A stretch of 64,000 nucleotides of DNA from Thermodesulfobacteriota bacterium (GCA_965205855.1 OZ242184.1:32001-96000); one strand, 5' to 3'. Positions 5,826 to 21,706 are shown, counted from the first letter of the stretch. A program made the numbers and translations. Notes: generated by a model from the letters alone, not told the origin.

Positions 5826-5952
5826 GTCCACACCAAACGAAGGTTTGAAATGTTCCCGCCTATTCCCCAACGGAAGGGATCAAGCTCCCGCTTAGTCAGG
5901 TTTTCTATTTAGCAGGAGACCCGACAAAGGGTCTCCTTCGTTCAATGTGGAC
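5826..5952 (-). ncRNA. Structured leader RNA, copy A of a 3-copy family (unnamed)
   Basis: 18-bp closing helix (5935-5952 with 5826-5843, three G-U pairs). 27-nt core ACCCTTTGTCGGGTCTCCTGCTAAATA (5906-5932) identical to copy C. Confidence 0.8.
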
Positions 5953-5958
5953 GTTGCA

Positions 5959-5988
5959 ATTATAAGGTAAGAAAACCGGATAAGTCAA
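5959..5988 (-). promoter_or_regulatory. Sigma70 promoter for leader copy A
   Basis: TTGACT-18 nt-TATAAT. The closing helix begins 7 nt after the -10. Confidence 0.75.
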
Positions 5989-6043
5989 TTAAAAAAAAAG
6001 GTTTTTCCATTTTCATCCGGCTGACGGGCGAAGAATATCTAAG

Positions 6044-7285
6044 TTAATTCCGCATAAAACTGTAAAGATGTCCTCCGATTTCGGAGTTTTTCAGTTTGTT
6101 CAGAGAGTGCTTCTCAATCTGCCTGATGCGTTCGCGCGTCAGGTCAAACATCTTGCCGATTTCGTCAAGTGTAAATGTTCCCGAATGGTCTATGCCGAAA
6201 CGCAGTTTGATTATCTTCTCTTCCCTTTCGTTGAGATGGAGTTTCAACGCCTCGCGCAGTTTTTCCGAAAGGTCGTTTTTTGCCATAAGAGAGTCCGGAA
6301 CCAACTCCTCCTGATCCGGAACGGAATCAAGCAAAGTGGCGTTCTTGCCCTCAAGAATAGGTGTGTCAAGACTTATGGCGTCGTTTGTTGAGTTCAAAAT
6401 CCTTTTCACAACCTCAATGGTTATTCCAGATTCCTCGGATATCTGTTTCGGAGTCGGCTTTCTGTCCAGTTTTTTGGAAAGTTTGGCAACCGTTTTATAT
6501 ACGCGATTCGCCTGCTCAAGCAGATAAACCGGTACCTTAATTGTTCTGGTCTGCCCCTGAAGCGCCCTGAGTATGGCCTGATGTATCCACCATGAGGCAT
6601 ATGTTGAAAACTTGTATCCCTTTGTGTGGTCAAACCTCTCGACCGCTCTCATAAGTCCGAGATTGCCTTCCTGAATCAAGTCGGGCAGGGGAAGTCCCCT
6701 GTTTGTGTATCTCCTTGATATTGTTATCACAAGCCTCAGGTTGGCTTTGACAAATTTCTGTTTCATCCTCTGCGCCTTTTTTTTCTGGGCAATTCGCGCC
6801 AGCTTCCAGAGAACTTCTATTCTTTTGTTATATTCGGTCTTTTTCGCGGAACTTCTCGACATTTTCGTCTTTTTGACAAGCCGTTCAATTTTTGTAAAAT
6901 TTTTGTATGTTTTGTCCTTTTTTCTGTAGCTCCAGTCAGTATCTTCCGCGACCGCTTCGTATTTTTTTATCTTGGACGATATCTCAACTTCCTGCTTCGC
7001 TGTGAAAAGATCCTCCGAAGACATGTCCTTGAAATAAACATAAAGAAGGCGCATATGCTCATCTGGGCTGAAATCAGCCTTCTTTTTCTTTGTTTTTAAG
7101 GCTTCAAGAAAAACCTGGGCCGGAGGAGGTTCGGGAAAGTCATCGTCCGGAGAATTAGCGGTTCCCCCTATTTTCCCAAATTTGACTTCACTGTCCTCAT
7201 CCTCAGCAACGGACGATGCCTCAGATTCCAAGCTCCGGGAGTCATTTTTCATGTTTATCTTAAGTTTTTTTTCCTTATCTGACAT
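6044..7285 (-). CDS. RNA polymerase sigma-70 family factor (RpoD/RpoS-like)
   Basis: ANLRLV, DLIQEGNLGLMRAVERFD, KFSTYASWWI, TRERIRQIE. Confidence 0.93.
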   Translation of the reverse strand: MSDKEKKLKINMKNDSRSLESEASSVAEDEDSEVKFGKIGGTANSPDDDFPEPPPAQVFLEALKTKKKKADFSPDEHMRLLYVYFKDMSSEDLFTAKQEVEISSKIKKYEAVAEDTDWSYRKKDKTYKNFTKIERLVKKTKMSRSSAKKTEYNKRIEVLWKLARIAQKKKAQRMKQKFVKANLRLVITISRRYTNRGLPLPDLIQEGNLGLMRAVERFDHTKGYKFSTYASWWIHQAILRALQGQTRTIKVPVYLLEQANRVYKTVAKLSKKLDRKPTPKQISEESGITIEVVKRILNSTNDAISLDTPILEGKNATLLDSVPDQEELVPDSLMAKNDLSEKLREALKLHLNEREEKIIKLRFGIDHSGTFTLDEIGKMFDLTRERIRQIEKHSLNKLKNSEIGGHLYSFMRN

Positions 7286-19429: not shown

Positions 19430-19441
19430 TTCAATACGGCT

Positions 19442-21448
19442 CTATTGAGAATCCGTGCCTTGAACGGAATCTCTGAGAATTTCCGCGACATCTTTTACCT
19501 GTATGTCTTCCGATTTGCCCTTCAATTTCGCCGCATCCTCAAACATTGTGTTGCAAAAATAGCAGGCAGTGGCAAGGGTGTCCGGTTCCAACTGCTGAGC
19601 TTCATCAAACCTGTTCCAGTTGACTCTCGGCGCGTCTTCCTCCATCCATATCTTTCCACCACCGGCTCCGCAACAGAAACTGTTGCGCTTTGAGCGTTTC
19701 ATTTCAACAAGATCTATTCCGGATATGGCTTTCAATATCTCTCTGGGAGAGTCGTAGATTTGGTTGTATCTGCCTATGTAGCAGGAGTCATGGTATGTGA
19801 TTTTTTCGGAAACCTTGCCGTTCGGGGTGAGTTTGCTCTGTTTTACGAGTTCAAGCAGAAAATCCGTGTGGTGAACAACCTCATACTCACCGCCGAATTG
19901 CGGATACTCGTTCTTTATGGTGTTGAAGCAGTGCGGGCAGTTGGTGAGTATTTTTTTAACCTTCAAATCGTTCATCGTTTCAACATTTTGAGAGGCAAGT
20001 TCCTGATAAAGCGCTTCCTCGCCGAGCCTTCTTGCCGGGTCCCCGCTACAGGTTTCCGAAGGGCCCATAACCGCAAAGTCCACGCCCGCACTGACAAGGA
20101 GATCCACAACCGCTTTTGAAACATTCTGCCCGCGAGGGTCAAATGCGCCGAAACATCCCATCCAGTACACAACATCAACGGGCTCGGCACTCTCAAGGTC
20201 TTTTCCGAGAATACGGATGCCTTCAATGTCAGACAGCCAGGTTGCCCTTTCGGAGTTGTCGAAACCCCACGGGTTACCGTGGCTTTGAAGTTTCTGCAAG
20301 GTTCTTGTCGCAGTGCCGGGCGGTTTGCCGTCAAGGGTCAGGTATTTGCGCATTTCCACAATTTTGCCCATTTGGTCTATAAACAGAGGACATTGCTCAA
20401 CACAGGCGTTGCAGGTTGTGCAGGCCCAAAGCTCTTCGGGAGTTATCCACTCCGCGGAAGCAAGGTTTGCGCCTTCTCCGGCGGCAAGCCTGCCATCGGC
20501 AATCTCCTTGCCCTCACTTGAAATATAGTGCCTGAGTTTCACAACCACATCGCGCGGGGAAAGAACTTTCTCCGTGTTCCATGCCGGGCAGTTATCCGTG
20601 CATCTGCCACACTCAGTGCATGTGTAGGAGTCCATAAGGTCTTTCCAGCTAAAATCCTCTATTTTACTCGCCCCGAAGTGTTCTATGTCGTCCGGTATGT
20701 TCTCAAAATCTATCTTTTCAATCACGCCGCGCGGTTTTAGGTTCTGGAAGAAAACATTGAGAGCCGCGGTAAAAACGTGGCTGTGTTTTGAGTATGGCAG
20801 ATAGTTAAGAAATCCTAGGAGTATCAAGATATGAAACCACCAGAAAAACTCACGCCAAAAGACCTGACCCCCAACCGTCATTGTCGCGAAAAGCCCGGCG
20901 AAAAGACTTGAGACGGGAAGAAATTCCTCAGGAGCATCACCAAGTGAGATTCTTGCTCCGGTAAAGAGAAAAGCCGTCATCACAAGGCCGAAAATAAGCC
21001 CCAGTACAACAACTGCATCAGGCCCGTTCACCTCTCTTTTTTTGCCGAAAGTCAGCCGATTTGTGACACCCATGCACAGGGCGACAACAACAAGTGCCTG
21101 AGTTATGTCCAAAACAAGTTCGTAGTAGTCATGACTTATGCCGGAAATGAGTTTGAATCCGGTTTCGGGGAAGAAAAGCCCAGTCATGAAAACCTCAAAA
21201 GTTCCTATGGAGATAATAAGAAATCCCCAGAAAATCATAAAGTGCTCAATTCCGGCGAATGTGTAGTTCTGCCAGAGACGCCGCTGTCCGAAAACATAGA
21301 TAAAAACGCGTTTTATCCTCTCGCCGATTTGGTCAAAGCGGTTGTCCTCTTTTTTTCCAAGCCGCAGAAGGCGAATCAGGTTGTAGATGTTGTAAAAGAA
21401 AAAGCCGAAAGAGACGGCAAGAAGAACTGTCATTATAAGCGGCTTCAT
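19442..21448 (-). CDS. Membrane Fe-S oxidoreductase (NarI-like membrane part, two 4Fe-4S, two CCG domains; FadF/HdrD-like)
   Basis: CTECGRCTDNCP, CTTCNACVEQCP, CPHC, YHDSC, CCGAGGG. Confidence 0.9.
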   Translation of the reverse strand: MKPLIMTVLLAVSFGFFFYNIYNLIRLLRLGKKEDNRFDQIGERIKRVFIYVFGQRRLWQNYTFAGIEHFMIFWGFLIISIGTFEVFMTGLFFPETGFKLISGISHDYYELVLDITQALVVVALCMGVTNRLTFGKKREVNGPDAVVVLGLIFGLVMTAFLFTGARISLGDAPEEFLPVSSLFAGLFATMTVGGQVFWREFFWWFHILILLGFLNYLPYSKHSHVFTAALNVFFQNLKPRGVIEKIDFENIPDDIEHFGASKIEDFSWKDLMDSYTCTECGRCTDNCPAWNTEKVLSPRDVVVKLRHYISSEGKEIADGRLAAGEGANLASAEWITPEELWACTTCNACVEQCPLFIDQMGKIVEMRKYLTLDGKPPGTATRTLQKLQSHGNPWGFDNSERATWLSDIEGIRILGKDLESAEPVDVVYWMGCFGAFDPRGQNVSKAVVDLLVSAGVDFAVMGPSETCSGDPARRLGEEALYQELASQNVETMNDLKVKKILTNCPHCFNTIKNEYPQFGGEYEVVHHTDFLLELVKQSKLTPNGKVSEKITYHDSCYIGRYNQIYDSPREILKAISGIDLVEMKRSKRNSFCCGAGGGKIWMEEDAPRVNWNRFDEAQQLEPDTLATACYFCNTMFEDAAKLKGKSEDIQVKDVAEILRDSVQGTDSQ

Positions 21449-21571
21449 AGTCTTTTCTCCATTAATAGGCGCGGGGTCGCACTAGAAACTGAAAGACTAT
21501 ACTAAATAGGCACGGAAAAAGGTCAAGAAGCGGAAAGATGCTGAAGTGTTCGCACGGTTTGTTTTATAATG

Positions 21572-21706
21572 GCCTTGTTCACTACTCAACAGGAAACCCT
21601 TTGTCGGGTCTCCTGCTAAATAAAAGAATCGATACGGCGTGGATTAATTACCCGCGCTGGGAAATAAGCGGGAACTTCTTGACATCTGTTGAGTAGTGAA
21701 CAAGGC
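21572..21706 (+). ncRNA. Structured leader RNA, copy C
   Basis: Perfect 21-bp inverted repeat (21572-21592 / 21686-21706) enclosing the 27-nt core at 21596-21622. TATAAT at 21565-21570. Confidence 0.82.

Follow-up and report, generated by a model that had tools for sequence, protein, structure and literature searches.

sRNA-Xcc1 (Rfam RF02221) was first found in Xanthomonas campestris and is described, in the accounts cited here, as a trans-acting sRNA of 88 nt (PMC2996969; Chen 2011). In the cited account, the RNA gave a band near 100 nt, and its mapped ends were 88 nt from each other (PMC2996969). Canonical copies are placed by another account in integron cassettes, genomic islands, prophages and tandem arrays (bioRxiv 10.1101/2025.06.18.660453; PMC12189769). 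Automatic annotation assigns sRNA-Xcc1 to many genomes, prophages and integrons, and the literature cited still treats it as a trans-acting sRNA.

Other described RNAs resemble the elements analysed here in part. The c-di-GMP-I/GEMM and ydaO c-di-AMP RNAs also occur in several copies per genome in the 5′ UTRs of genes for secreted, membrane or surface proteins, but their architecture is different and they gave no Rfam match with the elements. The ompA-type 5′ UTR stabilisers similarly place a 5′-terminal stem, starting from +1, on the mRNAs of abundant outer-membrane proteins. However, the elements differ in their large, conserved core of several helices and in their alternative pairings, and there is no homology. 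C4 antisense RNA follows a similar logic, with complementary segments that recur on both sides of its structured core, and its acceptor-like stem is likewise followed by RCC.

I analysed a window of 64,000 nucleotides from a Thermodesulfobacteriota bacterium (GCA_965205855.1, OZ242184.1:32001-96000). Three elements in the window, A, B and C, are members of a structured 5′ leader RNA family. This family is not wholly undescribed; judged by sequence and fold matches, it is a longer, distant relative of sRNA-Xcc1.

Elements in the window

A preliminary description of this DNA had proposed three elements with a shared fold. All three were located, copy A on the minus strand and copies B and C on the plus strand. 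PT denotes the closing helix formed between segment b and the 3′ tail.

5959..5988, minus strand: copy A promoter, TTGACT-18 nt-TATAAT (11/12 matches in the promoter scan; family logo)
5813..5952, minus strand: copy A leader RNA, long form (model R2, 75.6 bits, E 3.6e-13)
5935-5952 with 5826-5843, minus strand: copy A P1, 18 bp including G-U pairs; P3, the A-rich loop and an extended P4 lie inside it
5916-5935, minus strand: copy A P2 hairpin, with segment b (GUCGGGUCU) at 5917-5925
5813-5826, minus strand: copy A tail, PT 3′ strand at 5816-5824
5140..5786, minus strand: copy A target gene with its SD (SD GGAGG and ATG within 5773-5786)
8161..8189, plus strand: copy B promoter, TTGACA-17 nt-TATTTT (10/12 matches in the promoter scan; family logo)
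8197..8315, plus strand: copy B leader RNA, short form (model R1, 54.6 bits; model R2, 75.7 bits)
8197-8213 with 8278-8295, plus strand: copy B P1, 17 bp with one bulge
8214-8228, plus strand: copy B P2, with segment b at 8222-8230
8295-8307, plus strand: copy B tail, PT 3′ strand at 8297-8305
8303-8315, plus strand: copy B P5 hairpin, GGCGC-UUU-GCGCC
8323..8706, plus strand: copy B target gene with its SD (SD GAGGAGG, ATG at 8338)
21565..21570, plus strand: copy C -10 box, TATAAT
21571..21716, plus strand: copy C leader RNA, long form (model R2, 65.2 bits)
21577-21592 with 21686-21701, plus strand: copy C P1, extendable from 21571
21595-21610, plus strand: copy C P2, with segment b at 21603-21611
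21701-21714, plus strand: copy C tail, PT 3′ strand at 21703-21711
21740..22539, plus strand: decayed DNA methylase-HNH gene downstream of copy C

The arms of P1 differ in sequence between the window copies and stay paired, with G-U pairs, as had been described. The exchange in P3 was also seen (CCUGCU/GCGGGA in A and C versus CUGAU/AUCAG in B), and the A-rich loop and a variable apical hairpin occur in all three copies. The conserved 3′ tail is present, but it lies beyond the ends first assigned to the elements and turns out to form the 3′ arm of the closing helix. In the copy C tail CUU replaces CCC, and all nine PT positions still pair via G-U. The TTGTC of P2, called invariant, is so among the three window copies, whereas only G-u-C is kept family-wide. 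Folding was compared with shuffled sequences, giving z values of -4.7 (A), -5.0 (B) and -9.3 (C), and none of the 200 shuffles equalled the native sequence. The window copies are single units amid housekeeping genes (sigma-70 factor, SOD, TilS, LeuA).

The family and its covariation

The genome was thought to hold three copies; a search with my own family model found five full copies and one 3′-truncated copy in its 1.4 Mb. About 100 further copies were found in related small-genome MAGs bearing several phylum labels, and the core itself also occurs on at least 99 stretches from IMG/VR. Across the family, the element is 108-150 nt in length and P1 is 16-19 bp, while a P4 extension of 30-40 nt exists in some copies only. 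The consensus of 71 copies reads AAUAnAAnAcCc...GGgRAAuAR for the A-rich loop domain.

In an alignment of 74 copies, fitted to the model's own structure as were all those used for pair counts, 95.3% of the P1-P4 cells are paired versus 34-47% with slid partners; both sides changed in 31 of the 32 pairs, and 0/500 shuffles match the observed value. A second lineage gave 95.6% paired cells, with 27 of 32 pairs changed on both sides. The covariation noticed among three copies extends to a larger alignment. P1 is the longest helix and the most freely covarying one. Among 2605 cells there are 225 G-U/U-G and 20 A-C/C-A combinations; therefore, the fold lies in the sense-strand RNA. The early judgement that these are functional RNAs and not a recent DNA repeat agrees with the covariation, the register with the promoter and the G-U bias.

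Relation to sRNA-Xcc1

No Rfam family reached its gathering score for the window copies or their relatives, and copies A, B and C have no relevant Rfam match even at E<=10. To that extent the family is undescribed, as had been supposed. On the other hand, RF02221, whose gathering cut-off is 53 bits, gave sub-threshold matches of 28.5-46.3 bits over model positions 1-87 in 16 of 20 loci, and also in three of seven loci. Two of the five copies in the genome itself were matched (E, 30.5 bits; F, 30.3 bits). These matches always fall on the same part of the element. For comparison, canonical phage copies score 53-81.6 bits with RF02221. Reciprocally, my model R2 matches 22/22 canonical sRNA-Xcc1 copies at model positions 40-71. 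The RF02221 alignments place the closing helix on segment b and the tail, and AAUACAAuACCC..GGGGAAuaa on P3/P4.

Several traits are common to both. The closing helix of 9-10 bp is GgCcGGggG/CccCCgGcC in sRNA-Xcc1 and GUCGGGUCU/AGRCCCGRC in the window family. The H2/H3 domain has loops AAUAcAAuA and GAAuaa around a CCC/GGG hairpin. A single-stranded RCC stands 3′ of the closing helix, directly after it in 84 of 99 copies. A promoter lies immediately upstream, and an SD-bearing gene 25-55 nt downstream; in canonical copies the start codon comes 25-45 nt after the element. In contrast, the window family has about 28 extra 5′ nucleotides forming P1 and P2, while canonical copies have no P1; the 3′ strand of P1 seems largely to replace the local hairpin H4. 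The +1 of the window family is predicted about 28 nt upstream of the closing helix, whereas the canonical RNA begins at the helix and is about 88 nt long. The hosts are uncultured small-genome lineages rather than Xanthomonas or enterobacterial prophages. Canonical copies precede anti-repressor genes (10/10) or, in the literature, symE, and the window family precedes genes for lipoproteins, outer-membrane proteins (OMPs) and methylase-HNH proteins.

By these reciprocal matches, the window family is a divergent, 5′-extended branch of the sRNA-Xcc1 family. The sRNA-Xcc1 fold thus extends well past the Rfam threshold, into uncultured small-genome lineages of several phylum labels. At minimum, there is a case for a new or widened Rfam family and for re-examining the annotation type of RF02221.

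Promoters and downstream genes

In 83 unique upstream regions, T-A-n-A-n-T stands at -13 to -8 and TTGAC at -36 to -32, with a pyrimidine at -1 and G at +1. The distance from the end of the -10 box to the first G of P1 is 6 nt in copy A (G at 5952) and 7 nt in copy B (G at 8197). Thus, the predicted +1 is the first G of P1, at a sigma-70-type promoter. This placement had been suggested for all three copies; the family logo and the promoters of A and B support it, while copy C offers only a -10 box, the promoter scan having given no above-threshold site and no passing -35 there.

An SD-led start codon in the same orientation lies at a median of 34 nt downstream (60 copies where the rule called one). 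For the window copies, the terminator scan found no terminator-like site from the element up to the start codon. A U-run follows P5 in two copies (F and L013), and most copies have none. It is likely that the leader reads into the downstream gene without a terminator. The orientation follows the downstream gene.

Of the 95 unique elements, 32 are immediately followed, in the same orientation, by a gene for a product with a lipobox, and 35 by one for another product with a hydrophobic N-terminus. The downstream genes mostly encode lipoproteins, outer-membrane or secreted proteins, and sometimes DNA methylase-HNH proteins. The regulon consists of lineage-specific lipoproteins, OMPs, S8 proteases and methylase-HNH proteins, mostly without a Pfam family. 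In the window, the copy A target ORF (5140-5775) specifies a product of 211 aa that has a signal peptide, a beta-barrel-like character and a C-terminal F, and no Pfam family; the copy B target product has 122 aa with the lipobox VVTSC.

The gene downstream of copy C has decayed. A 33-aa ORF (21740-21841) stops within the DPPF motif. A tblastn comparison with an intact relative (L010, N6_N4_Mtase plus HNH) assigned residues 15-40 to 21755-21832, 50-159 to 21832-22161 and 301-341 to 22411-22539, in two frames. The HNH part is missing.

Alternative pairings

At each of the nine PT positions, x1-x9, pairing holds for 74-78 of 78 sequences; eight of the initial 86 had been left out as the anchors failed on them. 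The summed pairs amount to 746 versus 722.4 +/- 3.8 in shuffled sets, and 0/1000 shuffles reach the observed value. Compensatory changes are UAG/CUG, UUA/UGG and GGGC/GCCC. Taken by itself, the Dadabacteria-type alignment shows 90.3% pairing for PT, which does not exceed shuffles (89/500 reach this value), because both strands are nearly invariant there. P5 is present in 65 of 80 sequences, versus 35-49 in 20 shuffles. For H4 the support is modest: 99 of 109 copies could form such a local hairpin with at least 5 bp (median z -1.08 against shuffles), and its bases are shared with the P1 3′ strand. The median energies are close, -6.5 (P2) plus -12.1 (P5) versus -17.2 kcal/mol (PT).

Neither fold clearly hides the SD, the mean unpaired probability being 0.53 versus 0.49. 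Among 60 sequences, 15 favour fold I (P1, P2 and P5) and four fold II (the canonical fold with PT and H4), and 41 show no difference. P1 is long and so stable that fold I might prevail outright. A pseudoknot containing both P1 and PT is also conceivable; then only P2 and PT would be mutually exclusive.

Proposed mechanism and alternatives

A mechanism may be built on what was observed: the fold and its strand, the signal at the start site, homology to sRNA-Xcc1, alternative pairings and an association with certain genes downstream. I consider it fairly probable that the elements are cis-acting 5′ leaders, a 5′-extended branch of sRNA-Xcc1, in which an effector sets the balance between two exclusive folds and thereby controls the mRNA. 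The core would be the canonical fold, with PT (GUCGGGUCU with the tail), P3, the A-rich loop, P4, H4 and the RCC tail. The 5′ extension, about 28 nt long, can pair with two regions of this fold, so that two mutually exclusive folds are expected. Segment a (CCCG) would pair with the 5′ strand of PT, giving P2; the P1 5′ strand would pair with the H4 3′ arm and the linker, giving the long P1; and the freed tail would pair with a downstream look-alike of segment b, giving P5. The effector, whether small molecule, protein or processing enzyme, would recognise the invariant loop domain, and the balance of folds would control translation or stability of the downstream mRNA. The competing strand is built in, which makes stabilisation of the canonical fold directly testable by reporters and probing. 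If the cis-sensor reading is true, it gives a handle on surface-lipoprotein control in organisms that cannot be grown and, in the canonical branch, on the expression of anti-repressors and, through it, on prophage induction.

Canonical copies and the new branch alike are promoter-proximal leaders before specific gene classes. It is conceivable, though rather unlikely, that the whole sRNA-Xcc1 superfamily is a cis-acting sensor before accessory 'moron-like' genes and not a set of trans-acting sRNAs, with one common signal read by the loop domain. The accessory genes would be those for phage anti-repressors, symE toxins, methylase-HNH proteins and surface lipoproteins. The loop domain would be closed by a tRNA-acceptor-like helix followed by RCC, and the signal might be a ligand or an enzyme such as RNase P. 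The 5′-extended branch would be self-masked, its antisense arm holding the sensor in the alternative fold. If so, one fold would tie a common signal to prophage induction and surface remodelling in at least 3-5 phyla.

The family has a riboswitch-type layout, namely a conserved 5′ UTR domain, covariation and an alternative-pairing platform. A classical metabolite or ion riboswitch, with the P1/P2/P3-P4 three-way junction as aptamer and the tail and P5 as expression platform, would account for invariant junction and loop nucleotides within covarying stems, several copies per genome, the several phylum labels and the mutually exclusive helices. I hold it rather doubtful all the same, since the gene context offers no ligand hint, the regulon has no pathway logic, and canonical relatives precede phage anti-repressors. 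A P1 of 16-19 bp and a sequence-conserved expression platform are also atypical of riboswitches. The obvious envelope-linked messengers, c-di-GMP and c-di-AMP, are unlikely ligands; there is no Rfam match, and their synthases are not co-distributed with the RNA. GGDEF is absent from four of the six carriers tested (G000, G120, G123 and G124), and the DAC domain from three of the six (G120-G122), including G121, titled a complete chromosome; completeness is known for G000 only. A trans-acting sRNA released by termination or processing after the tail, its gene-proximal position being incidental or part of a dual function, would fit the published band of about 100 nt with ends 88 nt apart, as far as that account goes (PMC2996969). 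The U-runs in F and L013 would suit it as well. RCC after the closing helix resembles a tRNA acceptor end and could mark a processing site, as acceptor-like stems with RCC do for RNase P and in C4 RNA. It is nevertheless unlikely: the window copies lack a terminator-like site after them and most copies lack the U-run, the SD and start codon follow closely in the same orientation in canonical copies too, and a conserved tie to one downstream gene class is unexpected for a free-standing sRNA gene.

That P1 starts exactly at the predicted +1 in the 83 regions, is the longest and most freely covarying helix, and precedes genes for abundant envelope proteins would be expected of a passive stabiliser, whose blunt 5′-terminal P1 guards the mRNA from 5′-end-dependent decay without switching. 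However, a 5′ hairpin alone would do for this, leaving the invariant A-rich loops and the PT/P2/P5 complementarities unexplained, and the canonical homologues are without P1. This makes it quite improbable. Finally, the elements might act as DNA, as a mobile repeat or an attC-like or other recombination site folding in single-stranded form. Canonical copies are placed in integron cassettes, islands, prophages and tandem arrays by the account cited (bioRxiv 10.1101/2025.06.18.660453; PMC12189769), the core is found in the IMG/VR stretches, and the targets resemble accessory genes. Against this, the excess of G-U over A-C points to selection on one RNA strand, the register with promoter and SD is fixed, the P1 arms vary among copies unlike terminal repeats, and the window copies are single and scattered amid housekeeping genes; a DNA-level element is thus hardly credible. 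The switching cis-acting leader remains my preferred reading.

Comparison with C4 RNA

As had been advised, C4-type families were searched for. No C4, c4-2 or c4-a1b1 match was found on the window copies or on 27 family loci, and membership of the C4 clan (CL00128) was rejected. C4 acts as a processed antisense RNA and, like its a/b target sites, belongs to the P1/P7 immI region (RF01695, RF03163). Its genomic niche is shared by the canonical relatives. C4 occurs only beside canonical copies; in two loci (L182 and L194), some 0.5 kb separates C4, c4-a1b1 and isrK from the sRNA-Xcc1 copy and anti-repressor gene downstream of them.

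Copies of the leader RNA in the window and its genome

Three stretches of the window had been described as copies of one structured leader RNA. All of them are present, and their exact coordinates were fixed as copies A to C below; copies D to F lie elsewhere in the same genome.

5952 down to 5813, minus strand: copy A leader
8197-8307, plus strand: copy B leader, with a small hairpin to 8315
21577-21714, plus strand: copy C leader, with P1 extendable from 21571
350376-350492 of the genome, outside the window: copy E, full
652478-652595 of the genome, outside the window: copy F, full
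G000:C1:30594-30680 (L003:1101-1181), roughly 1.3 kb ahead of the window: copy D, 3′-truncated

In the alignment of A, B and C, the invariant blocks are TTGTCGGGTCT, CTG-TAAATA and CAAG-C--GGC-C, and the intervening arms differ in sequence. All three copies are far better folded than their own shuffles (z = -4.7, -5.0 and -9.3). The genome is a single contig of 1.40 Mb, rated 98% complete, and its five full copies score 65-116 bits with R2, the second of two covariance models built in this analysis. Copy D retains the 5′ strand of the closing helix P1, the hairpin P2, the 5′ strand of P3, the loop and P4, lacks the P1 3′ strand and the conserved 3′ segment (the tail), and is directly followed by the Shine-Dalgarno (SD) sequence and ATG of a 160-aa lipoprotein. 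R2 gave only a partial match to it (19.1 bits, E 0.76). A further weak R2 match outside the window, at G000:C1:1244820-1244944 (+) (21.1 bits, E 0.28), could be another degenerate copy or chance.

Covariation, strand and promoter

The covariance-model check proposed in the preliminary description was run. Since MAFFT placed the two P1 strands out of register, the first model, R1, was given a structure set by hand and seeded with copies E and F, whose strands were in register, and the remaining copies were re-aligned with the model. A search of 101 related genomes with R1 gave 74 matches, spread over 31 of them; R2 was built from 71 of the matches. Copies were recovered in the window's own genome and in relatives, with strong covariation in P1 to P4. 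The alignments used for counting pairs were model-fitted, which favours structure, but the margin is very large: in the 74 copies, P1 to P4 are 95.3% paired versus 34-47% with slid partners, 31 of 32 pairs changed on both sides, and the observed values were reached by none of 500 shuffles. In the gammaproteobacterial set, 95.6% is paired and 27 of the 32 pairs changed on both sides.

Among 2605 pair cells, G-U or U-G occurs 225 times and A-C or C-A 20 times. Such an asymmetry is predicted for an RNA folding on the strand of the gene, but not for a DNA hairpin, so the selected fold is one of sense-strand RNA. The promoter register agrees. In 83 unique upstream regions, counted from the first P1 base, a -10 box (T-A-n-A-n-T) lies at -13 to -8 and TTGAC at -36 to -32, while position -1 is a pyrimidine and +1, the first P1 base itself, is G. 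A promoter scan of the window found strong promoters before copies A and B, and none above threshold for copy C. The reading of the elements as a functional RNA is therefore supported by the covarying helices, the sense-strand G-U bias and the promoter register. Strings resembling CUGAU and GAAA prompted a comparison with the hammerhead and other ribozymes, which was rejected because Rfam gave no support and the register is wrong.

A divergent branch of sRNA-Xcc1

The family had been proposed as a candidate undescribed regulator. This stands insofar as no Rfam family matches it at the gathering score, and falls insofar as sub-threshold and reciprocal matches place it in the described family sRNA-Xcc1 (Rfam RF02221), the function of which is reportedly the subject of a paper by Chen et al. 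2011. At the gathering score, Rfam called three tRNAs and no other family in the whole window.

24112-24182, minus strand: tRNA gene
29890-29961, plus strand: tRNA gene
42525-42598, plus strand: tRNA gene

Relaxed scans of the three leader sites gave chance matches only (COG2908, snoU82P, MIR5229 and Zeta-pan). Below its 53-bit cut-off, RF02221 matched three of seven relatives' loci (35.0, 34.1 and 28.7 bits), copies E and F (30.5 and 30.3 bits), and 16 of 20 further loci (28.5-46.3 bits), the last always at model positions 1-87 and in the same part of the element. In the alignment, the closing helix of the Rfam model maps onto PT, the helix of P2 strand b with the tail; AAUACAAuACCC..GGGGAAuaa maps onto P3, the loop and P4; and the 3′ aCCC maps onto the RCC after PT. 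Of 99 copies, 84 have R-C-C directly 3′ of PT, and the Rfam consensus gives it in upper case. Its sites in the window are as follows.

5813-5815: RCC of copy A
8306-8308: RCC of copy B
21712-21714: RCC of copy C

The RCC with a closing helix of 9-10 bp resembles a tRNA acceptor end. C4 RNA is processed by RNase P.

In the reverse test, a core pattern drawn from the Rfam consensus found at least 99 IMG/VR stretches, and 20 of them, picked for small size, were scanned with Rfam. Rfam called 22 sRNA-Xcc1 copies in these (53-81.6 bits), and R2 matched all 22, mostly at positions 40-71. These canonical copies, which reach the gathering score, lack the 5′ extension of the window family, and their closing helix is immediately preceded by a promoter-like sequence. 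Thus, the window family is a 5′-extended, divergent branch of sRNA-Xcc1; it widens the range of that family and shows a new architecture.

In the IMG/VR prophage contigs (L160-L229, e.g. L182:3058-3852), a start codon follows the canonical copies after 25-45 nt. Of 17 ORFs called, ten were scanned and all ten encode anti-repressor-type products: P22_AR (P22_AR_N/C), ORF6N, AntA, Bro-N, KilA-N and Rha. In two of the contigs (L182 and L194), the sRNA-Xcc1 copy is preceded, at a distance of about 0.5 kb, by isrK, c4-a1b1 and C4. Excerpts of earlier papers give sRNA-Xcc1 as an 88-nt RNA with mapped ends (PMC2996969); place it upstream of symE in the same orientation in Xanthomonas integron cassettes, the two being opposite to the Pc promoter and not under Pc (bioRxiv 10.1101/2025.06.18.660453); locate it 5′ of an ORF6N gene in APSE phages (bioRxiv 10.1101/2020.03.17.996009); and count seven occurrences in Xylella, five of them in tandem (PMC12189769). 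The analysis argues that the sRNA-Xcc1 family acts in cis.

No description of the extended family was found in the papers that the literature searches listed, whose supplements may contain motif lists. Term searches of PMC5737381 gave no match for "lipoprotein", "Poribacteria" or "Xcc1", and those of bioRxiv 10.64898/2026.09.22.753630 gave nothing relevant to the extended family.

The tail helix and a putative second fold

The tail, AGRCCCGRC, is complementary to GUCGGGUCU, which comprises the P2 loop and 3′ arm, and RNAalifold chose this pairing unprompted. On the Dadabacteria-type alignment, PT is 90.3% paired versus 26-53% when slid; it was no better than shuffles on this set alone, in which both strands are nearly invariant. 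When other lineages were added, the nine PT positions were paired in 74-78 of 78 sequences (8 of 86 had been dropped since the anchors failed on them), and the observed sum was reached by none of 1000 shuffles. Compensatory changes in the combined lineages include GGGUAG with CUGCCC and GGGUUA with UGGCCC.

Since PT and P2 use the same bases, they are mutually exclusive. A downstream sequence resembling the first PT strand offers the tail another partner; the resulting helix, P5, was found in 65 of 80 sequences versus 35-49 in shuffled controls. The median energies are similar, with -6.5 for P2 plus -12.1 for P5 versus -17.2 kcal/mol for PT. In the window family, J3/1 and the P1 3′ strand occupy the position of H4, the local hairpin of the canonical fold. 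Of 109 copies, 99 can still form a local hairpin of at least 5 bp there; support for it is modest (median z -1.08). Two parts of the canonical fold thus have a complement in the extra 5′ segment: P2 strand "a" would mask the closing helix and the P1 strand would mask H4. Such complementarity suggests a two-state RNA, with P1, P2 and P5 in one fold and the canonical PT and H4 in the other. I infer the switching itself, the effector behind it and the output. The SD sequence is not clearly hidden in either fold; sequestration showed a weak trend only and was left out of the support.

As ligands, c-di-GMP and c-di-AMP are unlikely, since the distribution of their synthases does not follow that of the RNA. 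GGDEF is absent from G000 (the window's genome), G120, G123 and G124, and DAC from G120-G122, completeness being known for G000 only. A class III cyclase was not found in the window's own genome.

Downstream genes

Downstream of the element, and oriented like it, come an SD sequence and a start codon; for the 60 copies in which an SD-led start was called, the median distance is 34 nt. A scan for terminator-like sites found none between a window element and the start codon that follows it. Copy A precedes a 211-aa signal-peptide protein and copy B a 122-aa lipoprotein; the neighbours of the window copies are ordinary housekeeping genes.

The downstream products of 95 unique elements were sorted by a heuristic classification. 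A lipobox was found in 32 and another hydrophobic N-terminus in 35, while 8 were classed as other and 3 were flagged as methylase-like, although one of these, L015, in fact has a lipobox. For 17 elements no ORF was called, in several cases merely because the fetched flank is short. Pfam matches among the downstream proteins are few: OMP_b-brl, RTX repeats, CARDB, DUF2085, lipoprotein S8 subtilases and, weakly, TbpB-barrel. Many downstream lipoproteins of the Dadabacteria-type and gammaproteobacterial lineages alike have a poly-Gly run right after a Cys (..GCGGGGG..; e.g. L018, L037, L131, L141 and L143). This likeness hints at one surface lipoprotein class or at transfer of leader plus gene between the lineages.

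A DNA methylase is found downstream in both lineages. Locus L010 has a full N6_N4_Mtase and HNH gene, and L040, L081/L121, L117 and L140 share its N-terminus. In the gammaproteobacterial loci among these (L081/L121, L117 and L140), the methylase N-terminal ORFs are short (56-68 aa) and may be real truncations or assembly indels. Copy C is followed by a decayed relative.

21740-22539, plus strand: decayed methylase-HNH pseudogene

Its 33-aa ORF breaks off within the DPPF motif. The rest of the similarity continues in a second frame, and the HNH portion at the C-terminus is missing.

Distribution

Within the window's GTDB phylum, R2 identified 34 of 120 genomes as carriers, all of them in 5 of the 32 genera. 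Named genome records, scanned with a pattern, gave 41 stretches, mostly in MAGs titled Thermodesulfobacteriota or Candidatus Dadabacteria; other titles are Gamma- and Alphaproteobacteria, Gemmatimonadota, Latescibacterota, Poribacteria and more, a phylum count to be read with two caveats on labels. The loci L083 and L088 (also L124 and L129), titled Gemmatimonadota and Latescibacterota in records of 5.2-5.4 Mb, are near-identical in elements and flanks, and the two labels may cover a single lineage. The 8-kb contig titled Poribacteria (L089) has two copies identical to those of the Dadabacteria-type loci L054 and L037, with matching downstream proteins, and it may be mis-binned. Five genomes from the pattern scan have 2-5 copies apiece, and in the order around the gammaproteobacterial record 13 of 56 genomes have 1-8 copies. 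Carrier genomes are nearly all small (1.2-2.4 Mb), the exceptions being the two records of 5.2-5.4 Mb.
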